The notes beneath the pieces are model-generated. The model searched no databases and was not told the DNA's origin. It saw nothing but the letters and a program-made list of their open reading frames with translations. From Moraxellaceae bacterium (GTDB taxonomy: Bacteria; Pseudomonadota; Gammaproteobacteria; Burkholderiales; Rhodocyclaceae), in NCBI GenBank assembly GCA_031119205.1, contig JAVHYF010000010.1, forward strand, positions 49,371-113,370: a stretch of DNA of 64,000 nt, written 5' to 3'. Position numbers and translations under genes: made by a program. Within the stretch, counting starts at the first letter, position 1, and each line of letters opens with the position of its first letter. Shown here one piece after another: positions 53,259 to 64,000 of the stretch.

Positions 53259-54905
53259 ATGCACACGGTGCTTGATTACCTGCGCCGCTACGCCGATCTG
53301 GTCCTGGAACGCTATCGCGATCCGTACCACGGCACGCCGCTTTTCTTCGATGGTTTCGATACCTTCACCGGCCGCCCGGTCGTGTGGAAGAACGTCGACG
53401 GCACCCCCTGGGAGCCGTCCAACCTGGCGTCACAGCAGAATTTCTTCCGCTTCCTGGTATGCCTCAGCCGGCTGACTGGCGAGGAGCGTTATGCCCAGGC
53501 CGCCCGTGATGCGATCCGCTGGCACTTCGATCATGCCAACAAGGGTGGCTTGCTGACATGGGGTGGCCACTCGTTCATAGACCTGCGCACCCTGCGTGCG
53601 GTAGGGCCCGAGAACAAGCACCAGGTGCATGAACTCAAGCACCACTACCCATACTACGAACTGATGAACGAGGTGGATCCGGCGGCTACGGCGCGTCTGA
53701 TCAAGGGCCTCTGGAATGCGCACATCGACAACTGGGACAGCCTGGAGCTGACCCGCCATGGTCAGTACGGCCGGTCGCTGGATGAGCAGGGGGTGTGGAA
53801 TGCAGCCCAGCGTGCTGACCTCGACCTGCTGCGCGAGGCCCGCGGGTTGTCGTTCGTCAATATCGGCAGCGACCTGATCTATGCCGCGTGCATGTTGCGC
53901 AAATTGCAGGATGACGAGCAGGCACTGTCCTGGGGAGAGTTCCTGGCCTGGCAGTACGTGCGCAGCCGGCATCCCGTCACCGGCCTCGGGGTCTATCAGT
54001 TCAACCGGCCTGAGAAGCGCGAGGAGCCGCCGACCGACGAGAACGCCCATAATTTCACCTGGTCGTTCTTCGGCGATCGCGCGCAGCGCCAGTTCGGCCC
54101 CGAGTATGGCGAAGTCGCCCAGGAGGCCTGGGTGCTCTTCAAGATGGACGAAGAGGCGCTCAACGGGCCGGAGGGCATCTACGGGGAGAGCGCGCTGGCA
54201 CAGATGCTGATGGCGCGCGAGCTGGGCGAGTCCGGCCGCCGGCTCCGCGACTGGACGCTCGACGGCCTCGATGCCTGGGCACGCCATGCCTACATTCCGG
54301 AGACGAACGAGATCAAACCCATGTTCGCAGATGGCCGCGATCTGACGGGTGAGGTCTTCCAGCGTTTCGGCTACTACGGTCCCAAGGGCAAGGAATTCGT
54401 ACGCCGTCCCATCACCGGCATGGTGTTCCTGTCCTATGCCACGGCGTGGGCGGTCAGTGGCCGCGCCTCACTGTGGCCGACCGTGTGCGCCATGGCACGC
54501 AACTTCGGACTGGGCGACTGGGATGCGGCCAACCCCGGACAACCACGCAACGTGGCTGTCCCGCAGCAGGTGGATGCATTGTTGCTGAGTGCCGTGATGG
54601 AGGTGCATCGCGCCACCGGAGTCGCGATCTATCTGGAACTGGCACAGAAACTCGGTGAGCGGATGTTCGCGGAGCGCGCGCACCGCGGCGCCATGGTGGC
54701 CAGCGAACGTCACACCTATTGTCGTCTCGACGATCCGGAGCCGCTGGCGCTTGCACTGATGCTGGCGCGCTTGCAGGGTTGCGATGAAGGCCTGCCGGTG
54801 CTGCGTGGGTATGGCGGTTACATACACGGTGACGCCATGCTGGAAGATGGCTCCTGCCGCAATATCCAGGACATCAAGGCCATCTACACGCAGACGCAGC
54901 CCTGA
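53259..54905 (+). CDS. PL2-family pectate lyase without signal peptide (PelW-like)
   Basis: LASQQN, WGGH, HELKHHYPYY, TRHG, GVYQF, RAQRQFG; no N-terminal hydrophobic stretch. Confidence 0.85.
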   Translation: MHTVLDYLRRYADLVLERYRDPYHGTPLFFDGFDTFTGRPVVWKNVDGTPWEPSNLASQQNFFRFLVCLSRLTGEERYAQAARDAIRWHFDHANKGGLLTWGGHSFIDLRTLRAVGPENKHQVHELKHHYPYYELMNEVDPAATARLIKGLWNAHIDNWDSLELTRHGQYGRSLDEQGVWNAAQRADLDLLREARGLSFVNIGSDLIYAACMLRKLQDDEQALSWGEFLAWQYVRSRHPVTGLGVYQFNRPEKREEPPTDENAHNFTWSFFGDRAQRQFGPEYGEVAQEAWVLFKMDEEALNGPEGIYGESALAQMLMARELGESGRRLRDWTLDGLDAWARHAYIPETNEIKPMFADGRDLTGEVFQRFGYYGPKGKEFVRRPITGMVFLSYATAWAVSGRASLWPTVCAMARNFGLGDWDAANPGQPRNVAVPQQVDALLLSAVMEVHRATGVAIYLELAQKLGERMFAERAHRGAMVASERHTYCRLDDPEPLALALMLARLQGCDEGLPVLRGYGGYIHGDAMLEDGSCRNIQDIKAIYTQTQP

Positions 54906-55037
54906 TTATTTCGGGTGCCAATGTGTTTGTACGCTGGTTTCAGCGGCCAAAAATCACCATTTTCGAACGAACGATCTGAAATCCGTTTGGCGGCGTGACG
55001 TGATTGACGCTTCTGTCGAATTGTGTCGCGCTGCAAA

Positions 55038-55066
55038 TTGACTTGAGTTCCGCGGGCAACCAATCT
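55038..55066 (+). promoter_or_regulatory. Candidate promoter for the first PL3 lyase
   Basis: TTGACT-N17-CAATCT; same layout as 58969-58997. Confidence 0.55.
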
Positions 55067-55190
55067 CCAGCCTGACCACGCAGAAGCAGTTAGTACCGAA
55101 GAGCATTTCGTGCGGCCAGGAGGAGGTCAGGCTGTCACCGAAAGTGCCGTCGTGGTCAGACACCAATCGTGGTTCTTTTGGAGACATCTC

Positions 55191-56171
55191 ATGAAACTCA
55201 AGCTCGTCGTCGGTGGCCTGCTGGCCGCCATGGCTTTCAGCAGCCAAGCAGCAACTGACTACCCGTCCGGCTACACCAAGTGTGCCCAGAACACCGGCGC
55301 TACCTGCTCGTTCAGCGGCACCCGTTCGGTCGCCCTGGGCAAGTCCGGCAACTTCGTCTACGGCACCTTCACCAACAGTGTTGCCTGCTCCAGCAGCAAC
55401 TTCCCCAGCAATAGCTTCCCGGGCTCGGCATGGTGCTCGTACGCTGGTTCGACTTCGTCGTCCAGCAGCTCCTCGTCCAGCTCCAGCAGCTCCTCCTCTT
55501 CGTCGAGCTCCAGCTCCTCGTCGTCGAGCAGCTCGTCCGGCACGGGCAGCAGCAGCGGTGGTATCACCGGTGCGACCTGCTCCTCGACCGGCAACCAGTC
55601 CATGTCCTCGACCATCACCGTCAGCAGCGGCACCTATGACGGCGGTTGCAAGACCTTCAACCCGTCTTCTTCGATGGGCTCCGGTGACCAGGACGAAGGT
55701 CAGGATCCGGCCTTCATCATCTCCGGCGGCGCAACCCTGAAGAACGCCATCCTGGGCAACAACGGCGTGGACGGTGTGCACTTCAAGGGCAACGGCACGC
55801 TGCAGAACTTCCGCTGGAGCAACATCGGTGAAGACGCCTTCACGCTGAAGGAGTCGGGCACGATCTACATCACCGGCGTGTCGGGCTACAACGGTGAAGA
55901 CAAGTTCGGCCAGGTGAATGCCGCCGGTACCATCAACATCTCCAACTGCATCGTCGACAACGTTGCCAAGGTGATCCGTCAGAACGGTGGCACCACGTTC
56001 AAGATGACCGTGAACATCGACCGTTGCCAACTGTCGAACCTGGGCGAAGGCGTGTTCCGTTCGGACAGCTCCAGCTCGGTCGGCAAGCTGACCAACAGCC
56101 GCCTGCGTAACTCGGGCTCGCTGTGCATCGGCAAGATGAGCTGCTCGCAGTCGGGCAACACCAACTACTAA
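55191..56171 (+). CDS. Secreted PL3 pectate lyase: 4-Cys module, poly-Ser linker, catalytic domain
   Basis: Signal peptide ending SSQA; DQDEGQDP, DGVH, WSNIGEDA, EDKFGQVN, KVIRQNG; SD GGAG. Confidence 0.88.
   Translation: MKLKLVVGGLLAAMAFSSQAATDYPSGYTKCAQNTGATCSFSGTRSVALGKSGNFVYGTFTNSVACSSSNFPSNSFPGSAWCSYAGSTSSSSSSSSSSSSSSSSSSSSSSSSSSSSGTGSSSGGITGATCSSTGNQSMSSTITVSSGTYDGGCKTFNPSSSMGSGDQDEGQDPAFIISGGATLKNAILGNNGVDGVHFKGNGTLQNFRWSNIGEDAFTLKESGTIYITGVSGYNGEDKFGQVNAAGTINISNCIVDNVAKVIRQNGGTTFKMTVNIDRCQLSNLGEGVFRSDSSSSVGKLTNSRLRNSGSLCIGKMSCSQSGNTNY
55449..55556 (+). repeat. Poly-serine linker coding tract
   Basis: Run of mixed TCG/TCC/TCT/AGC codons. Confidence 0.9.
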
Positions 56172-56280
56172 GATTCACAGTAGTTGAGTCGTGACCGCGC
56201 CGCTCTGGCGGCGCGGCTCTGCGACAGCAGTCCTCAAGTTTTACTGCAGTATTTGTTGTTTCCTGGTTAGTTGTTTATTG

Positions 56281-56316
56281 AACGCACGGCTCTCGGGCCG
56301 TGCGTTTTTCTTTGTT
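56281..56316 (+). terminator. Intrinsic terminator after the PL3 gene
   Basis: AACGCACGGC / GCCGTGCGTT stem plus TTTCTTTGTT. Confidence 0.75.
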
Positions 56317-56680
56317 GCTGCGTGTGCTGAGTGAGGCAGAGGCGCGCGCGAGAACTGACTGAGCGTGGATGGCCCACAACCGGGCTGTTCAGGAGGCAGG
56401 TGAAGCTTCTTCGCGCGGACGGCGATTCGCTTTCTGCTCGTTCTCTCGCGATCTGGCCACAGTTGCGATTACTGGCGCGCAGGAGACCCATCGCTTGAAG
56501 TGCGCGATGGTTGAAGGGGCATGTGTGGGAGCGGCCTGTCTGCAGAAGCAGGCCTTGCCTTGCGCCACCGCAGTGGCGCGTGAGCCGCGCATGCTCGTCC
56601 CGCTGAATGAGTACCCGTGCAGCTTACGGGCTGCGCCAACGCCAGCATGGCGCCGGTGAGGCGTTGCCGCCTCGCCGTGC

Positions 56681-58840
56681 TTACTGTGCGGGGATTGCGT
56701 CGTCGGGAACCAGACGCACGTTGCGCTCGCCGACCAGCATCAGGCTACGGGTTGCTGGATTGAACGCCAGACTGCGGAAATGTCTTTGCGTGTGGGTGGC
56801 GATGGCCTGCCAGGTCACTCCGCTGTCCTCGCTGCGCAGCAGGACACCACCACGGCCGGTGAGCAGGAGGTTGCGGGTGCCGGGTTCCACGGCACTGCTG
56901 CGCAACTCCTCCTGCGTACCGCTTTCCACGCGCTGCCAGCTCTGGCCCTGATCGGTCGAGCGCATGATCAGGCCACCTTCGCCGAAAGCGACGAGCGCCT
57001 GCGTCTTCGGGTCGGTGAGCATGCGTCGCAAGCCATGTTCGCCACCGCTCCCGACGCTCTGCCAGCTACGCCCCTGGTCGGTGGAGCGCAGGATGGTGCC
57101 GCGCTGGCCCACTGCGAAGACGTGCTTCGATGCCGGATCGAAGTGGCTTCCGTAGAGGCCCTGGTCGGTGCCGCTCGCGACAAGCTGCCACTGTTTGCTA
57201 CGCGGTTCGCCGCGGACGATGACGCCAGTGTTTCCGGTGATCACGACGCTGCCATCGTCCAGCGCGCTACCGTGCCATAGCTCGCGGCTGCCGGCATCGA
57301 CGCGTTGCTCCTGCCAGCTCTTGCCGTCGTCGGTGGACACCTTCAGGCCACCGAAGACCTCGACCGCGACGGTCGTCTTGTGAGCCGGATCGGGGACCAG
57401 ATGCACCAGTGCTTCGCCTTTCTCGAAAGGCACTGCGAGCGTGACCTGCCAGCTGCGTCCTTGATCCGTAGAGCGCAGGATCGTGCCGGGTGGGCCGGCT
57501 GCCAGCAGGGCTTTCCCGCCCGGACTGGTCACAAGCGCGCGGTAGCTCGGCGGCGTGTTTTCGTTGGGGTAACGCAGGCGCAGCGCCTCCCAGTCGTTGC
57601 CGTCATTGCCGGCGAGATACATCGTGCCGACCTGACCTGCCGTGACGAAACTCTTGCCGTCGGGCGTCGCGATGACTTCGCGCTGGTAGTCGGACAGGCG
57701 CGGCGACAACGCTGCCCAGGTCTTGCCTGCATCCTGCGATGCGTGGAGATGGCCCCCGTCGCCGAGCAGGGCAACCGTGCCTCGCTTCGGATCGTAGAGC
57801 ATGTCCTGGAAATTGCCGGTGCCGCCTGCTGCCATGGCCGCCACCCAGTTGCGGCCGCCGTCGGATGAGCGCAGCAGGGTGCCGTGGTGGCCGGTGGCGA
57901 TCAGGCTCTTGCTGCGCGGATCGAAGTGCACGCGGCTCAGGTAGTTCTTGCTGCCGTGAAAGGGGGCGTCGATCAGGCGCCAGCTCTCGCCGTCGTCCGC
58001 CGATACGGCAACCTCACCGGTGTGGCCAGTCAGTACGATGGTCTTGTGCTCGGGATCCCGGATGCTGTCCGTGAAGAAGGCCAGCGTCGGCAGTTGCAGC
58101 AGGTTCCAGTTGTCGCCCTTGTCCCGCGATACGTAGAAGCGTCCGCGTGCGCTGGTGGCGATCAGTGTGTCGCCGTGGCGGTAGAACGCGGTGATCGGTG
58201 TGTCGATGCCCAGCGAGACGACGGCCCAGTTCTCGCCACCATCCTCGGAGCGGCCCAGCATGCCATCCGGTCCGCCCAGCCACAGGCGCTGGCTGGCGGG
58301 GTCTGCGTACACGCTCTCCAGCTTCAGTGGCTGGCCGGCCTTCTGCGAACTCCAGGTCTTGCCGTCGTCTCGGGAATGCAGGATGACGCCTTGTGTGCCG
58401 ACTGCGATCCAGCTCTTCGTACGTGCATCGTAGGTCAGAGCCAGGAGGTCGGACTCCATCGCGTCATGCTTGCTCTGTGCCCAGGTGCGGCCCTGGTCTT
58501 CCGATCGCAGGATGGTGCCGGCGGCACCGACGATGATGATCACTTCGCCGTTGTTGGCGCCGCGCGTGAGGTCTGCGGTGGCAGGGGAATCCGCCTGTTG
58601 CCATTGCTGGTTGTCGGTGGATCGCAGGATGGTGCCGTCACTTCCCCAGGCGATGGAAATGGCACCGTCATTGATCGACAGGCCGCGAGCGAGGCTGGGA
58701 TTGATCACCTCTGCACGATAGGTGGGGGTTGCGCGCGGTGCTTCGGCGCCGCGGCAGCCTGCGAGGGCAAGGCCCGATAACAGGGCGGCAGTCAGGGCCC
58801 ATGTGCGCATGCGCAGGCGCCCGGTGGTGCGCTGGTTCAT
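56681..58840 (-). CDS. Asp-box (BNR/YCF48-like) beta-propeller lipoprotein
   Basis: Lipobox LALAGC; 15 GxxGxIxRSxDxGxxW-type repeats plus terminal GERNVR; SD GGAGG before ATG 58840. Confidence 0.85.
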   Translation of the reverse strand: MNQRTTGRLRMRTWALTAALLSGLALAGCRGAEAPRATPTYRAEVINPSLARGLSINDGAISIAWGSDGTILRSTDNQQWQQADSPATADLTRGANNGEVIIIVGAAGTILRSEDQGRTWAQSKHDAMESDLLALTYDARTKSWIAVGTQGVILHSRDDGKTWSSQKAGQPLKLESVYADPASQRLWLGGPDGMLGRSEDGGENWAVVSLGIDTPITAFYRHGDTLIATSARGRFYVSRDKGDNWNLLQLPTLAFFTDSIRDPEHKTIVLTGHTGEVAVSADDGESWRLIDAPFHGSKNYLSRVHFDPRSKSLIATGHHGTLLRSSDGGRNWVAAMAAGGTGNFQDMLYDPKRGTVALLGDGGHLHASQDAGKTWAALSPRLSDYQREVIATPDGKSFVTAGQVGTMYLAGNDGNDWEALRLRYPNENTPPSYRALVTSPGGKALLAAGPPGTILRSTDQGRSWQVTLAVPFEKGEALVHLVPDPAHKTTVAVEVFGGLKVSTDDGKSWQEQRVDAGSRELWHGSALDDGSVVITGNTGVIVRGEPRSKQWQLVASGTDQGLYGSHFDPASKHVFAVGQRGTILRSTDQGRSWQSVGSGGEHGLRRMLTDPKTQALVAFGEGGLIMRSTDQGQSWQRVESGTQEELRSSAVEPGTRNLLLTGRGGVLLRSEDSGVTWQAIATHTQRHFRSLAFNPATRSLMLVGERNVRLVPDDAIPAQ

Positions 58841-58968
58841 CGTGTCTCCTCCGAAGTTCCGGCTGATTGCACGCGCGTCATGGCGGCGTGTCGTGTGATC
58901 GATGGATTGTGCCTGCAACGCAGCGCAGCAAGTGCACCGCAGGGCAGGGATGGTTAGTGCCTTGCGGC

Positions 58969-58997
58969 TTGACCTTTCAGGTTTGTCAGACCAATCT
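58969..58997 (+). promoter_or_regulatory. Candidate promoter for the PL1 lyase with overlapping palindrome
   Basis: TTGACC-N17-CAATCT; near-palindrome TTTGTCAGACCAA at 58982-58994. Confidence 0.55.
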
Positions 58998-59109
58998 GCC
59001 GGAGGCGGAATCATGCGGGCTGGACACAGCCAGATGCCTGTAAATCACGGCGTTTCTGCAGATTTTGTCGAATCGCATCACCATAAAAAAACTACTGAGG
59101 AGACATTTC

Positions 59110-60570
59110 ATGAGATCCACGCAGCTTGCGTTGGGCGGCGTATTGCTTGCCGCCCTGACTTGCGTCGCAACGTCAGCCACAGCCGCCAACCGGCCGGCCG
59201 GTTACGTCACCCTGTGTACCGAGAACAAGACCTGCTCGGTGGCGCAGACCACCAACGTGGCCTTCGGCCGCGCCGACAAGTTCTTCTACAAGAGCCTCGC
59301 CGGCAGCTTCGTCTGCAACGAGGCGACCTTCGGTGGCCGCACCGCTGGTGGTGTCAATGAATGCTCGGTGCCGGGCAGCTCCGGCGGCTCGTCGAGCAGT
59401 TCGTCCAGTTCCTCTTCGTCCAGCTCTTCTTCCTCAAGTTCCTCGTCGAGCTCGTCCTCCAGCTCCAGCAGTTCTTCGAGCTCATCATCGTCGAGCAGTT
59501 CGTCTTCCAGCAGCACGTCGAGTTCCTCGTCCTCCAGTACTTCGTCCTCGAGTGGCACGGGTTCGTCGTCGTCGAGCAGCTCGTCTTCCGGTAACGGTTC
59601 GTCGAGTGGCAATGCTGCGGGCGTGGAAGGCTTCGCTTCGCTGAACCGCGACGGCCGCAACGGCACGAACGGTGGTGCAGGCGGACCGGAAGTGGTGGTC
59701 ACCAACTTCCAGCAGTTCGTGGCTGCGGTGAGCGACCACTCCCCGCGCGTGGTGCGCGTGTCCGGCACGATCCGCGCGGAAGGTGGTGCGGTGATGGTGA
59801 ACGTCGGCTCCAACAAGAGCATCCTGGGTAGCGGCACCAACGCGACCATCGATGGCTTCGGTCTGAACATCAGCGGCTGGTGGCCGGAGCATGTGACGCA
59901 GTTCAAGTCCGACTGGTGCGAGGCCAAGCATGCCGGCCTGTTCACGTACACGCAGAACGTGATCGTGCGCAACCTGACGATCCAGAACTACGGTGACGAT
60001 GGCATCAACGTGGCCTGCTGGTCGCACCACATCTGGCTGGACCACAACACCATCCTGCCGGGTGCGGATGGCGCGCTGGACATCAAGCGCGGGTCGGACT
60101 GGGTGACGGTGTCGTGGAACAAGATCATGAACACCGACAAGACCATGCTGCTGGGTCACGATGACAGCAACTCGGCGCAGGACACCGGCAAGCTGCACGT
60201 CACCTACCATCACAACTGGTTGCAGAACACCACGCAGCGCCACCCGCGTGTGCGCTTCGGCCAGGCCCACGTGTACAACAACTGGGCGGACGGGACGAAG
60301 AACTACTTCATCGGCTCCAGCCTGCAGTCGGACATCTATGCCGATGGCAACTACCTCAACATGAACGGCTTCGCCACGCAGGAGCAGGGCAGCGCTTCAG
60401 GCAAGCTGACCTGGGATGCCAGCAACCTGATCATCAAAGCCAAGGCACCGGAAGTGAACACGGGTGATGCCTTCAACCCGCGTAGCTATTACAGCTACAC
60501 GCTGGATCCGGCGGCCAACATCCCGGCGATCCTGACGGCAGGCGCAGGCGCAGGGAAAATCGCGCCCTGA
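59110..60570 (+). CDS. Secreted PL1 pectate lyase: 4-Cys module, long poly-Ser linker, catalytic domain
   Basis: Signal peptide ending SATA; GTNGGAGG, NVIVRNL, IWLDHN, DGALDIKRGSD, RHPRVRFG; SD GAGGAG. Confidence 0.92.
   Translation: MRSTQLALGGVLLAALTCVATSATAANRPAGYVTLCTENKTCSVAQTTNVAFGRADKFFYKSLAGSFVCNEATFGGRTAGGVNECSVPGSSGGSSSSSSSSSSSSSSSSSSSSSSSSSSSSSSSSSSSSSSSSSSTSSSSSSSTSSSSGTGSSSSSSSSSGNGSSSGNAAGVEGFASLNRDGRNGTNGGAGGPEVVVTNFQQFVAAVSDHSPRVVRVSGTIRAEGGAVMVNVGSNKSILGSGTNATIDGFGLNISGWWPEHVTQFKSDWCEAKHAGLFTYTQNVIVRNLTIQNYGDDGINVACWSHHIWLDHNTILPGADGALDIKRGSDWVTVSWNKIMNTDKTMLLGHDDSNSAQDTGKLHVTYHHNWLQNTTQRHPRVRFGQAHVYNNWADGTKNYFIGSSLQSDIYADGNYLNMNGFATQEQGSASGKLTWDASNLIIKAKAPEVNTGDAFNPRSYYSYTLDPAANIPAILTAGAGAGKIAP
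59377..59607 (+). repeat. Poly-serine linker coding tract (about 77 codons)
   Basis: Mixed TCG/TCC/TCT/TCA/AGC/AGT codons. Confidence 0.9.
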
Positions 60571-60592
60571 TACCGACCTGCAGTACAGCAAC

Positions 60593-60626
60593 AAAAAAGA
60601 ACCCGCCATCTGGCGGGTTCTTTTTT
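60593..60626. terminator. Bidirectional intrinsic terminator
   Basis: AAAAAAGAACCCGCCA-TC-TGGCGGGTTCTTTTTT between convergent genes. Confidence 0.88.
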
Positions 60627-60629
60627 GGT

Positions 60630-62720
60630 TCAGCGCCTGGCTGGTGCGAGCTCGATGCGTAGCAGGCGCTCGCCGTAGGCCAGCACGATGTTGCCGTCAT
60701 CCAGTTCGAAGAGCCCCTTCAGATGTCCGGTGGTGCGCGTCGGCAGCCGCTGCCAGCTCAGGCCGCCATCGTCCGAGCGCAGCAGGACGCCGGAGCGACC
60801 CGGCACGAGGATAACGGCCTTGTGCGTCACCAGCGGCTTGCGCAGGCCTTCGTCCGTCCCGCTGCCCGGCCATGCCCAGCTCGCGCCGCCGTCTGTCGAG
60901 CGGAGCAGTGCGCCTTTGTCGCCGGTGACGATCAGCGCCTTGTGGCTGGCGCTGTAGCTGATGTGGCGCAGCGTCGCTTCGGTGCCGCTGTCGAGGCGTC
61001 GCCAGTTGCTGCCGTCTTCCGAGCGCAGGATGGCGCCGGCCGCGCCGACGGCGAAGAAGGCCTTCAGATCGGGGATGAAACTCACGCCGTGAAGCGCCGC
61101 CTTCACGCCGCTGTCGGCGGCTTTCCATTGACGGCCATCAGGGCTGGTCTGGATGACGCCATCGCGCCCGACTGCGACGAAGCGGCCATTGAGCCGGCTG
61201 GCATCCGCGTCGTACAGGTGCGGCTCGGTGCGTGCATCGGTGGGCAGCCAGGTGCGTCCGCCGTCCACCGAGCGCATCACCGTGCCCGGACTGGCCAGGG
61301 CCAGCAGCACGCCGTTGCGCCTGTCCTCGACGAGCTTCTGGAAATTGCCTTGTGCCGCGCGATTGATCTCCAGGCGCCGGCTCCACACCGAGGCATCACC
61401 TTCGGCGCGGATGATCGTGCCGGGTGGTCCGCCCGCGACGACGGCGCCGGATTTCGGGTCCTGCACGGCGCTCAGCAGATACACGTCATGCCCCAGCCCG
61501 ATGGGCTGCGGCGTCCACTGGCGGCCGTTGTCGGTTGAGCGCATGACCCAGCCATTGGCACCTACGCTCACCAGAGTGCGGCCGTCGGCGGCGAGGCTGA
61601 TGTCGTGCACGTAGGAATGGATGGCTTGCTGCAGGGTGCTCCAGCTGTTGCCGCCATCGGTCGAACGCATGATCGCGCCGAACTGGCCGAGGGCCAGCAT
61701 GGTTTGATCGCGGACCAGCAGCACGTTGAGCCGGTCCTGCGTCGCGATGGAGATGCGTGTCCAGCTCTGGCCGCCGTCCTGCGAACGACGGATCGCGCCG
61801 GTCTCTCCGGCAGCGAAGACATTCCCGTTGGGTGCGAAAACCAGTTGCTGCACGTACTGGCCGGTGCCGGTTGCATTCTTCTGCCAGCTGCGCCCGCCAT
61901 CGGTGGAGCGAAGCACATCGCCCTGCGCGGTGCCGATCAGCAGCAGTTTGCGCGCGGGATCGAAAGCCACCGCGCCGAGGTAGGCAGTGGCGCCGGTGTC
62001 GATGCGTTGCCAGCTCTGTCCGTCATCGTTGCTGGCGAGCACCTGTCCGTCGCCGCCCAGTGCGAGCGTGCGGCGGAATGCGGGCAGATGGATCAGCCCG
62101 GTCATCGTTGCCGTGCTGCCGCTCTTGACGGCGCGCCAGCGCTTGCCGTCGTCGCTGGAGCGCAGCAGCGTTCCCTCGTCGCCAGCCGCCAGCCAGGTAC
62201 CGCCGGGCAGGGCCAGGATGTGGCCAAGTGGCTTGGTGGCAGGGGCGTCGACGCGGCTCCAGCTGGCGCCCTGGTCGGTCGAACGCAGCAGGCTGTTTTC
62301 GCCGACGGCGATCCAGCTCCGGCTGCGAGGGGATTGGGCCAGCATGCGTGCCCGCGTATCCGGTGGGGTGGCCTGAAGCTTCCAGCTTGAACCTGCATCA
62401 GTCGAGCGCAATACGCCGCCGGCGGCGCCAGCGGCGAGCAGGGTGCCGGTGCTCTCGTCGCGCGCGAACTGCAGTATCGCTTCGGACACGGGCGCGTCCG
62501 GCAAGCTGGCCTGCCAATGCAGGCCATCGTCACCGCTGCGCAGGATGCTGCCGTCGGTTCCGCCCAGCAGGAGCGGGCCGGGAGCGGGCAGCGCCATCTG
62601 GGTGAACAGCACGGCATTGACGACCGTGCGTCCGGCGAACGGGGTTTCCGTTGCGCGTGACGGCAGCGTGTGAAGGGCAAGGCAGCACAGCGCCAGCTGC
62701 GCAAACAATCGCTTCGACAT
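60630..62720 (-). CDS. Asp-box (BNR/YCF48-like) beta-propeller protein, exported
   Basis: Signal-like N-terminus MSKRLFAQLALCCLALHTLPSRA; 15 Asp-box repeats plus terminal GERLLR; alternative start at 62729. Confidence 0.85.
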   Translation of the reverse strand: MSKRLFAQLALCCLALHTLPSRATETPFAGRTVVNAVLFTQMALPAPGPLLLGGTDGSILRSGDDGLHWQASLPDAPVSEAILQFARDESTGTLLAAGAAGGVLRSTDAGSSWKLQATPPDTRARMLAQSPRSRSWIAVGENSLLRSTDQGASWSRVDAPATKPLGHILALPGGTWLAAGDEGTLLRSSDDGKRWRAVKSGSTATMTGLIHLPAFRRTLALGGDGQVLASNDDGQSWQRIDTGATAYLGAVAFDPARKLLLIGTAQGDVLRSTDGGRSWQKNATGTGQYVQQLVFAPNGNVFAAGETGAIRRSQDGGQSWTRISIATQDRLNVLLVRDQTMLALGQFGAIMRSTDGGNSWSTLQQAIHSYVHDISLAADGRTLVSVGANGWVMRSTDNGRQWTPQPIGLGHDVYLLSAVQDPKSGAVVAGGPPGTIIRAEGDASVWSRRLEINRAAQGNFQKLVEDRRNGVLLALASPGTVMRSVDGGRTWLPTDARTEPHLYDADASRLNGRFVAVGRDGVIQTSPDGRQWKAADSGVKAALHGVSFIPDLKAFFAVGAAGAILRSEDGSNWRRLDSGTEATLRHISYSASHKALIVTGDKGALLRSTDGGASWAWPGSGTDEGLRKPLVTHKAVILVPGRSGVLLRSDDGGLSWQRLPTRTTGHLKGLFELDDGNIVLAYGERLLRIELAPARR

Positions 62721-62795
62721 CCTGGGCATCCGGGAAAGACAGCGGGGGGTGGATACAAGGCGGCAGGCACATCATCCGCCAGGGACGGGCCTGCG

Positions 62796-62833
62796 AAAAG
62801 AAAACCCCCGGATCACGAGGACACGGGGGTTCT
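62796..62833 (-). terminator. Terminator-like hairpin between the second PL3 gene and the propeller gene
   Basis: AACCCCCG / CGGGGGTT stem followed on the minus strand by TTCTTTTC. Confidence 0.6.
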
Positions 62834-62875
62834 GTGCTGCAGACGGAGCGGCCAGGCCGCTCCGGTGTCACGGCA

Positions 62876-64000
62876 TCAGTATGCCTTCACGTCGCCCGTG
62901 CTGACGTCGCACGAAGCAGAGTTCCACTTCTCACCGATGGTGGAAGAGGAGCCGCCGCCCTTCTGCACGCCCTTGTACTCGACGCAAACCTTCGGGCTGC
63001 CCGACTTGTAGCCCTTGATCAGCAGGTTGCGGATCGTGGCACGGTCGCCGTAGTTGCTGTTCACGCCGATGACCGACGAGGACACCTTTTCCAGCTTGGT
63101 GTTGTTGATGTTGAAGAAGCGCGGACCGCCGTTGCCGGTGCAGTCGCCGCAAGAACGCGACAGCTTGCCGATCGAGCCGGTGGTGGTGAAGTCGTTCACG
63201 TTCAGGGTCGAGTTGATGCCGTTGTTCTGGAACACCTTGTCGTCCGCGTTGGCTGCCGTGCCGCCCTTGATGTTCATCACGGTGCCGACCTGACCGTTGC
63301 CGATCGAGGCTGCGTCTTCACACACTTCTTCCCAGGTCACGTTCTCCAGGTTGCAGGTGCCGCCCTGAACGTTGGTGCCCAGGCCGCTGCCGAGGCTGCC
63401 CCAGCCGCAGTGGATACCGTCGGCGCCACCGCCAGCAGCGATCACCGCGTTCTTCACGGTGCCGTTGATGATGGTCAGCACGGCGGGTTGGGTTTCGCTG
63501 CCGCCCGCGCAGGACAGGCCCAGCTTCTTGCCGCCGCAGTCCACCGTGGTACCGTGGATCAGCGCGCCCGGCTCACAGGTGTTGACCGGACCGGACCAGC
63601 CGGGGATCGGCGTCGTGCCGTTGCCGGACGAGCCCGAGCTGCTCGACGAAGAGCTGGAGCTGCTGGAGGAGGACGAGCTGCTGCTAGACGAAGAGCTGGA
63701 CGAAGAGCTGCTCGACGACGAAGAGGAGGAAGACGACGAAGAGCTGCTGCTCGACGACGAGGAGCCGCCCGAGCTGCTCGAGGCCGTGGAGCACTCGTTC
63801 ACGCCACCGCCGATACGGCCACCGAAGGTGGACTCGGAGCAGGTGAAGCTGCCCGACAGCGTCTTGTAGATGAACTGGTCAGCGCGGCCGAAAGCCACGT
63901 TCGTGTTGGCCGGAACCGAGCAGGTGCCCTTGTTTTCGGCGCAGATGGTGACCCAGCCCTTGGGGCGGTTCGCGGCGAAGGCCGATGCGGCCATGGTCGC
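62876..64000 (-). CDS. Secreted PL3 pectate lyase (PelI-like), 5-prime end outside the window
   Basis: ADGIHC, VTWEEVCEDAA, DDKVFQNN, GKLSRSCGDCTGNGGPR; 4-Cys module and poly-Ser linker; frame is open to the window edge. Confidence 0.88.
   Translation of the reverse strand, partial: ATMAASAFAANRPKGWVTICAENKGTCSVPANTNVAFGRADQFIYKTLSGSFTCSESTFGGRIGGGVNECSTASSSSGGSSSSSSSSSSSSSSSSSSSSSSSSSSSSSSSSSSSSSSSSSSSGSSGNGTTPIPGWSGPVNTCEPGALIHGTTVDCGGKKLGLSCAGGSETQPAVLTIINGTVKNAVIAAGGGADGIHCGWGSLGSGLGTNVQGGTCNLENVTWEEVCEDAASIGNGQVGTVMNIKGGTAANADDKVFQNNGINSTLNVNDFTTTGSIGKLSRSCGDCTGNGGPRFFNINNTKLEKVSSSVIGVNSNYGDRATIRNLLIKGYKSGSPKVCVEYKGVQKGGGSSSTIGEKWNSASCDVSTGDVKAY
63626..63782 (-). repeat. Poly-serine linker coding tract
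   Basis: Mixed TCG/TCC/TCT/AGC codons on the minus strand. Confidence 0.9.

Follow-up and report, generated by a model that had tools for sequence, protein, structure and literature searches.

This study deals with a stretch of 64,000 nucleotides (the window) from contig JAVHYF010000010.1 of a leaf-litter Uliginosibacterium (assembly GCA_031119205.1), in which genes for secreted pectate lyases alternate with genes for two large exported Asp-box beta-propeller proteins, named here propeller A and propeller B. Our central observation is that such propeller genes are paired with genes for pectate lyases of polysaccharide lyase family 3 (PL3), and that the pairing is conserved far beyond chance and across phyla, with clade-for-clade co-diversification of the two partners. 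The order in the window begins with PL3a (55191..56171, + strand; Pfam PF03211, E 2e-41), followed by propeller A (56681..58840, - strand), a lipoprotein of ~719 residues, the secreted PL1 pectate lyase PL1a (about 59110..60570, + strand; Pfam PF00544, E 2e-30), propeller B (60630..62729, - strand), a protein of 696-699 residues, and PL3b (62876..64000 and past the window end, - strand; Pfam PF03211, E 5e-43). Propellers A and B match the Pfam family PSII_BNR with 124.7 and 126.6 bits, respectively, against a cut-off of 27, and propeller A is also matched by BNR and Sortilin-Vps10. The indexed sequencing runs that contain this DNA are all metagenomic DNA runs, and it stems from leaf litter. 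When the rest of the contig was read, the complete PL3b gene was found to encode 386 residues, its 12 initial codons lying outside the window. This order, beside a PL2 lyase without a signal peptide, had been proposed in an earlier note on the same DNA, and it is borne out by the open reading frames (ORFs) and the Pfam matches.

PL3a and propeller A are convergent, and propeller A and PL1a are divergently transcribed. The signal peptide of propeller A terminates in the lipobox LAGC, so that the lipobox and the divergence from PL1 that the earlier note had described are both seen. Propeller B has a Sec-type signal peptide, and its gene is placed 3' of PL3b in the same orientation, after a gap of 146 bp, in keeping with the proposal that it is Sec-exported and follows the second PL3 gene. 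Two hairpins occupy the gap between PL3b and propeller B (62804..62862, - strand), the second being followed by a T run, and they may act in termination or attenuation of transcription; another terminator-like hairpin, of 12 pairs and then a T run, is found 3' of PL3a (56280..56307, + strand). The PL2 pectate lyase (53259..54905, + strand; Pfam PF06917, E 5e-191) starts with MHTVLDY, lacks a signal peptide, and scores 390 bits with the NCBIfam PelW model, under its equivalog cut-off of 1000. It is probably a cytoplasmic PelW-like exo-lyase, and it is a flank of the cluster, outside the conserved PL3-propeller pair. Beyond the window the cluster continues with a second PL1 (PL1b) and a third PL3 (PL3c), giving seven lyases and two propellers in all. 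With 17 hits to PL3 and about 20 PL1 genes in the 4.6-Mb assembly, pectate lyases have undergone a very large expansion, often in tandem arrays, such as four successive PL1 genes on contig C45 and three PL3 genes on contig C73. The genome also encodes the type II secretin GspD and KduI. A third propeller paralog, on contig C18, has molybdopterin, pilin-like and housekeeping genes as neighbours, with no lyase near it.

The surroundings of the propeller genes were mapped at 20 loci from Uliginosibacterium and close relatives, comprising 26 full-length propeller genes; Uliginosibacterium sp. H1 (G009, locus L026), the nearest relative of the present genome (G000), was excluded as a near copy of it. 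A PL3 gene lies within 600 bp of 15/26 propeller genes and within 3.5 kb of a further seven, and four have none nearby. With 17 PL3 genes per 4.6 Mb, chance alone would place a PL3 at 600 bp or less from any one gene in about 1% of cases. Among the close pairs, the commonest arrangement is PL3 followed by the propeller on one strand. A search of 60 relatives detected full-length double propellers in 10 of the 11 Uliginosibacterium genomes and in a single neighbouring genus, mostly as multiple paralogs, and not in the remaining genomes searched of the family and order. At E ≤ 1e-50, none of 400 genomes drawn across the class carries a double propeller, indicating that the family is rare. PL3 follows the same phyletic pattern: the 10 genomes of the genus with double propellers also have PL3, and the eleventh (G006) is without both. 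In U. gangwonense there are exactly one PL3 and one propeller, and they are adjacent. PL1, on the other hand, adjoins a propeller only in the present genome and in sp. H1, and loosely at three other loci. We therefore observe that the conserved partner of the propeller is PL3, not PL1. The co-occurrence with both lyase families that the earlier note had suggested scoring was found for PL3, at most loci of the genus, at the majority of the loci outside it and in the mirrored trees described below, and was not found as a conserved feature for PL1, which is placed between the two propellers in this species and in sp. H1 only. In L034, a 622-residue ORF beside a propeller without a nearby PL3 showed no Pfam match and no likeness to the unknown neighbours at other loci.

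Outside the genus we sampled 12 metagenomic homologs, or homologs from metagenome-assembled genomes (MAGs), at 27-35% identity, and a PL3 gene was detected within 2.2 kb of the propeller on 9 of the 12 contigs. Two of these (L050, L070) contain a lone PL3 followed by a propeller amid unrelated metabolic genes, and in a Polyangiaceae MAG (L053) the same pair is separated by a 47 bp gap with housekeeping genes around it. On four others (L052, L054, L047, L069) the propeller is convergent with PL3, together with one or two helical membrane-anchored proteins of ~175-315 residues. The three contigs without PL3 are L046, L048 and L068; in the first of them, a carboxylesterase gene is situated two genes from the propeller. 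We also scanned from the PL3 side, selecting loci independently of the propeller, with one genome per species, within a PL3 subclade that has histidine at two motif positions otherwise occupied by acidic residues (the His-variant PL3s). An adjacent propeller was detected at 10/12 of these loci, the exceptions being Viridibacterium curvum and a third copy in one MAG.

Several other genes recur around the propellers. The helical family, with an N-terminal membrane anchor, lies between PL3 and propeller in lineages outside Uliginosibacterium (L046:10279-11094, L047:11324-12166, L052:7323-8808, L054:7153-7917, L069:3009-4479), and in L046 its gene is placed between the carboxylesterase and propeller genes. 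A search of the present genome did not reveal this family. An LTXXQ/Spy-like reading of a ~270-residue neighbour was not adopted, as it depended on a single match at E 0.04. A GH50-like glycanase, similar to beta-agarases at E 1e-57, is encoded two genes from the propeller in L047, L048 and L068; it is a secreted protein of ~640 residues with no Pfam match (L048:11505-13421, L047:14171-16120, L068:8404-10302). Between this gene and the propeller is a gene for an ICMT-like membrane methyltransferase, which overlaps the propeller stop codon in L047 and L048. Genes for pilin-like (N_methyl) proteins or prepilin peptidases directly adjoin some propellers (L007:8195-9320, on C18; L049:5778-6865; L070:7423-7977), which may hint at a connection with type II secretion or pili.

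Trees were built for 44 PL3 catalytic domains, with all PL3s of this genome as background, and for 32 propeller proteins. Five propeller clades each match their own PL3 clade. PL3b and its relatives correspond to propeller B, PL3a and its relatives to propeller A, and the large His-variant PL3 clade to a propeller clade of its own; a fourth adjacent clade pair was also recognized, and the PL3s of the fifth are short, with a lipoprotein propeller in every case at a distance of 2-3 kb. At the two loci of this last type that were checked, a TPR protein of ~595 residues that carries a GT9-like tail is encoded between the short PL3 and the propeller (L035:8342-10129, L038:10580-12364). The distances between partners are correlated, with a Mantel r of 0.78 for 24 pairs and of 0.67 for 32 pairs with maximum-likelihood distances, and in both tests none of 5000 permutations (0/5000) reached as high a value, indicating that the modules duplicate and diverge as units. 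Within close pairs the propeller diverges faster, with typical p-distances of 0.15-0.45 compared to 0.04-0.16 for the lyase. No complementary pattern in net charge or isoelectric point was observed between PL3 and propeller partners.

Propellers A and B are paralogs that align along their entire length with 31% identity (E 2e-70). Besides a weak phmmer match to repeat blades of the GH74 xyloglucanase Xgh74A of C. thermocellum (E 1e-8), the only solved relatives found by sequence are Ycf48 proteins, at E 1e-11 to 2e-15 in the PDB. The scores with the Ycf48 equivalog model NCBIfam PRK13684 are 120-131 bits, under its cut-off of 326. The NCBIfam model for F510_1955 family glycosylhydrolases gives 176.8 and 174.6 bits against a cut-off of 175; we rejected this as a full-length match because the score sums five to six repeat matches of a 246-position model over a ~700-residue protein. 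More than 1000 homologs exist in public data, under names such as 'YCF48-related protein' and 'photosystem II stability/assembly factor-like uncharacterized protein', and none of the 120 listed is a natural fusion of PL3 and propeller. The AlphaFold2 (AF2) model of mature propeller B, made with 86 homologs, has a predicted local distance difference test score (pLDDT) of 94.4 and a predicted template modelling score (pTM) of 0.92, and is of very high confidence. In Foldseek, this model matched tandem propellers generally, GH74 structures being among the top matches (E about 1e-20), with a template modelling score (TM) of ~0.55, a root-mean-square deviation (rmsd) of ~9 Å and 13-17% identity; unrelated WD40 tandems score as well. 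The best matches of the VIA aligner are single 8-bladed propellers, over model residues 11-333. Beyond generic propellers, either tandem or 8-bladed, and uncharacterised proteins, nothing came out of the fold searches, and the ESM Atlas yielded only 'YCF48-related' clusters. In sequence, propeller B contains 15 Asp-boxes at ~42-residue spacing and a closing blade, and propeller A shows the same 42-residue periodicity. The predicted model with its fold matches and the repeat count of 16 blades together indicate that the propellers are tandems of eight-bladed Asp-box propellers (8+8).

Across the 86 homologs, the conserved repeat positions are G-8, G-5 and the LRSxDxGxxW Asp-box. Besides these, an N-terminal V-x-N and a group of arginines in the C-terminal propeller are conserved (R630 in 99%, R691 in 95%, R688 in 93% and R588 in 80%). 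The sequence alignment of these homologs revealed no invariant Asp, Glu, His, Lys or Tyr beyond the Asp-box repeat, and no conserved aromatic platform other than the structural Asp-box Trp. This conservation pattern favours a binding protein over an enzyme. The ratio of nonsynonymous to synonymous substitution (dN/dS) of the propellers, taken between this genome and sp. H1, is 0.10-0.15; an arms race was therefore rejected, as the ratio shows purifying selection.

On the lyase side, PL3a, PL3b and the partner lyases at other loci are PL3 pectate lyases, as judged from profile scores and Lys/Arg motifs. The PF03211 scores of the cluster PL3s are 142-182 bits, and those of the partner lyases 66-245 bits, against a cut-off of 25. 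The basic catalytic residues, namely the Lys of DK..Q.N and the Lys and Arg of GK..R, are kept in 20/20 aligned propeller-adjacent PL3s. In its catalytic domain, PL3b has ~55% identity to PelI and Pel3 (E 1e-55 to 3e-57). All secreted lyases of the cluster share one build, consisting of a signal peptide, a four-Cys module of ~60 residues that occurs in two kinds, a poly-Ser linker and the catalytic domain; the module is of type I in PL3a and of type II in PL1a. Several partner PL3s elsewhere have no N-terminal module of their own. In the window these modules lie at 55270-55460, 59180-59370 and 63780-63970, on both PL1 and PL3 catalytic domains, and genome-wide they are found on several dozen ORFs, each followed by a long poly-Ser linker. 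The Pfam scan of the full-length lyases gave no match across the module region, and the modules may represent an undescribed carbohydrate-binding or targeting module. The His-variant PL3s (for example L033:8555-9475, L050:4993-5907 and L055-L066) form a well conserved clade with clade-specific insertions, in which DGIH is changed to HGIS and CEDA to CEHA; from these replacements, an altered metal or substrate preference may be supposed, making the subclade of interest for enzyme discovery. Between the present genome and sp. H1, over window positions 53259-64000, synonymous divergence (dS) is 0.21-0.26 for PL3a, PL3b and PL1b and 0.67-0.90 for both propellers and PL2. Such unevenness is suggestive of gene conversion between paralogous lyases, or else of recent exchange, with the reservation that the poly-Ser tracts may distort the estimates.

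With reference to these results, we consider that each propeller is probably the accessory part of a conserved module of two genes, which encode an exported PL3 and an exported, non-catalytic, tandem eight-bladed Asp-box propeller, a distant relative of Ycf48. Export signals are carried by both partners, and some of the propellers are lipoproteins. Located in the periplasm or on the cell surface, each propeller would then serve its own PL3 as a cognate partner. The conserved arginine cluster of its C-terminal propeller would bind the lyase, so as to hold, anchor or regulate it, or the polyanionic substrate, or both. That the propeller is a direct protein partner of its lyase, whether as holdase, anchor or regulator, is a serious possibility that we place somewhat short of even; binding of the lyase is favoured because the pairing is one-to-one and clade-specific with several modules per genome, because Ycf48 binds its partner protein through an arginine patch (PMC10403576), and because lipoprotein forms exist. 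A more specific and rather doubtful version, modelled on Ycf48, which covers the future metal site of D1, is that the propeller might dock its arginine cluster onto the acidic metal/substrate cleft of its own PL3 beta-helix, so that the lyase would be held, masked or anchored in the envelope until release. Several points weigh against the two-gene module as a whole. No PL3 lies near 4 of the 26 propellers of the genus and 3 of the 12 outside it, and 15/17 PL3 genes of this genome, including close paralogs of PL3a, are without a propeller, which means that the propeller is not generally required for folding or secretion of PL3. The T-run hairpins between PL3b and propeller B leave their co-transcription not assured. 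Many of the sampled loci share descent, and the counts therefore overstate the number of independent events. Finally, the arginine cluster fits protein binding and pectate binding alike.

An alternative is that the propeller is a non-catalytic glycan binder in trans, similar to a lectin or a surface glycan-binding protein, which captures pectate or oligogalacturonides without contacting the lyase. Pectate is polyanionic and would suit the conserved arginine cluster, some propellers are lipoproteins as surface glycan-binding proteins are, relatives without PL3 lie near the GH50-like glycanase, and several partner PL3s have no N-terminal module of their own. We nevertheless regard this as unlikely, since clade-for-clade, one-to-one pairing with up to four or five modules per genome is hard to square with a single shared polymer, the Asp-box Trp is the only aromatic platform conserved, and Ycf48, the sole characterised relative of the family, binds a protein (PMC10403576). 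It is improbable that the propeller acts on carbohydrates itself, whether as a remotely GH74-like hydrolase or as a member of a new family of lyases or hydrolases. In that case it would work synergistically with PL3, either on pectin or on a polymer that masks pectin. Its position next to polysaccharide lyase genes and the tandem Asp-box architecture of GH74, together with the Foldseek, Xgh74A and F510_1955 matches, the last with a score at the cut-off, would agree with such an activity; however, the structural matches to GH74 are poor and equalled by unrelated WD40 tandems, the phmmer match is confined to repeat blades, the NCBIfam score is a sum over repeats, the blades number 16 rather than 14 with single 8-bladed propellers as the best VIA matches, and the 86 homologs share no invariant Asp, Glu, His, Lys or Tyr beyond the Asp-box repeat.

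Absence of any functional link, with PL3 and propeller being neighbours merely through common descent in a lineage rich in PL3, is disfavoured and about as improbable as the enzyme. The sampled loci come mostly from one genus and related Rhodocyclaceae, there are 17 PL3 genes in the genome, and a terminator-like site separates PL3b from propeller B. Against this, adjacency is kept between paralogous modules whose propellers are only ~30% identical and in other lineages, Polyangiaceae included, where the flanking genes are unrelated; the single PL3 of U. gangwonense adjoins its single propeller, the phyletic patterns coincide, and the trees mirror each other. A role of the propeller linked to secretion or pili is very improbable. 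Among the roles of scaffold, binder, chaperone and enzyme that the earlier note had listed, that of enzyme is the least supported.

The cognate module favoured here can be compared with known systems. As in the photosystem II assembly factor Ycf48/HCF136, the propellers are extracytoplasmic Asp-box proteins, often lipoproteins, with detectable homology (PSII_BNR 125-127 bits vs a cut-off of 27; PDB E 1e-11 to 2e-15), and the arginine patch of Ycf48 has a counterpart in the arginine cluster. Ycf48, however, is a single seven-bladed propeller of ~330 residues from oxygenic phototrophs, whereas the present proteins have 16 blades and ~700 residues and occur in heterotrophs, beside PL3. GH74 xyloglucanases are likewise secreted tandem Asp-box propellers, of ~700-750 residues, encoded among plant-cell-wall-degrading genes. 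The likeness to these enzymes, with which the earlier note had compared the proteins, does not extend further, because GH74 enzymes have two seven-bladed propellers (7+7) and their catalytic Asp pair is situated in the inter-propeller cleft, while the propellers here are predicted to be 8+8, and no conserved catalytic pair, nor any invariant acid outside the Asp-box repeats, was found in the sequence alignment of 86 homologs. In the lipase LipA with its specific foldase Lif, and in the secreted protease AprA with its periplasmic inhibitor AprI, the enzyme gene is followed by the gene of a dedicated partner. The present modules resemble these in gene order, the secreted enzyme being encoded first and then its specific partner, which is exported and in some cases anchored in the membrane, and in forming cognate pairs. 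They differ in that the families are unrelated, the partner is far larger, most PL3 paralogs are partnerless, and the pairing is known from genes. PL3b itself is similar to PelI and Pel3, the PL3 endo-pectate lyases of Dickeya and Pectobacterium, in the catalytic domain (~55% identical) and in the Lys/Arg motifs, but bears a four-Cys domain and poly-Ser linker instead of an FnIII N-terminal module. We know of no propeller partner for these enterobacterial enzymes.

The literature, searched in full text, gave no relevant description of Ycf48 or of BNR-repeat/beta-propeller proteins with pectate lyases or PL3, and nothing relevant on Ycf48 in non-photosynthetic bacteria; for Uliginosibacterium and pectin, the only hit was a mention of the genus in a reference list. 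The PL3-propeller pairing thus appears to be undescribed, and the earlier suggestion of an undescribed lyase partner holds for PL3, with which the pairing is conserved. What is new is the accessory family and its architecture in such a role, since a secreted enzyme with a dedicated accessory protein is already known as a kind. Pectate lyases are among the best-studied plant-cell-wall enzymes, and to our knowledge no dedicated protein partner has been known for them. U. gangwonense DSM 18521, with its one PL3 and one propeller, offers a simple genetic test system for the pair. If the propeller does dock onto the cleft of its lyase, secreted polysaccharide lyases would have enzyme-specific periplasmic partners of a new class, and Ycf48-like proteins would for the first time be assigned a function outside photosynthesis. 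A conserved, co-diversifying partnership with PL3 would give the 'YCF48-related' family of ~700-residue proteins its first functional context in heterotrophs, and could shed light on the means by which certain lyases are retained, targeted or regulated within the envelope.

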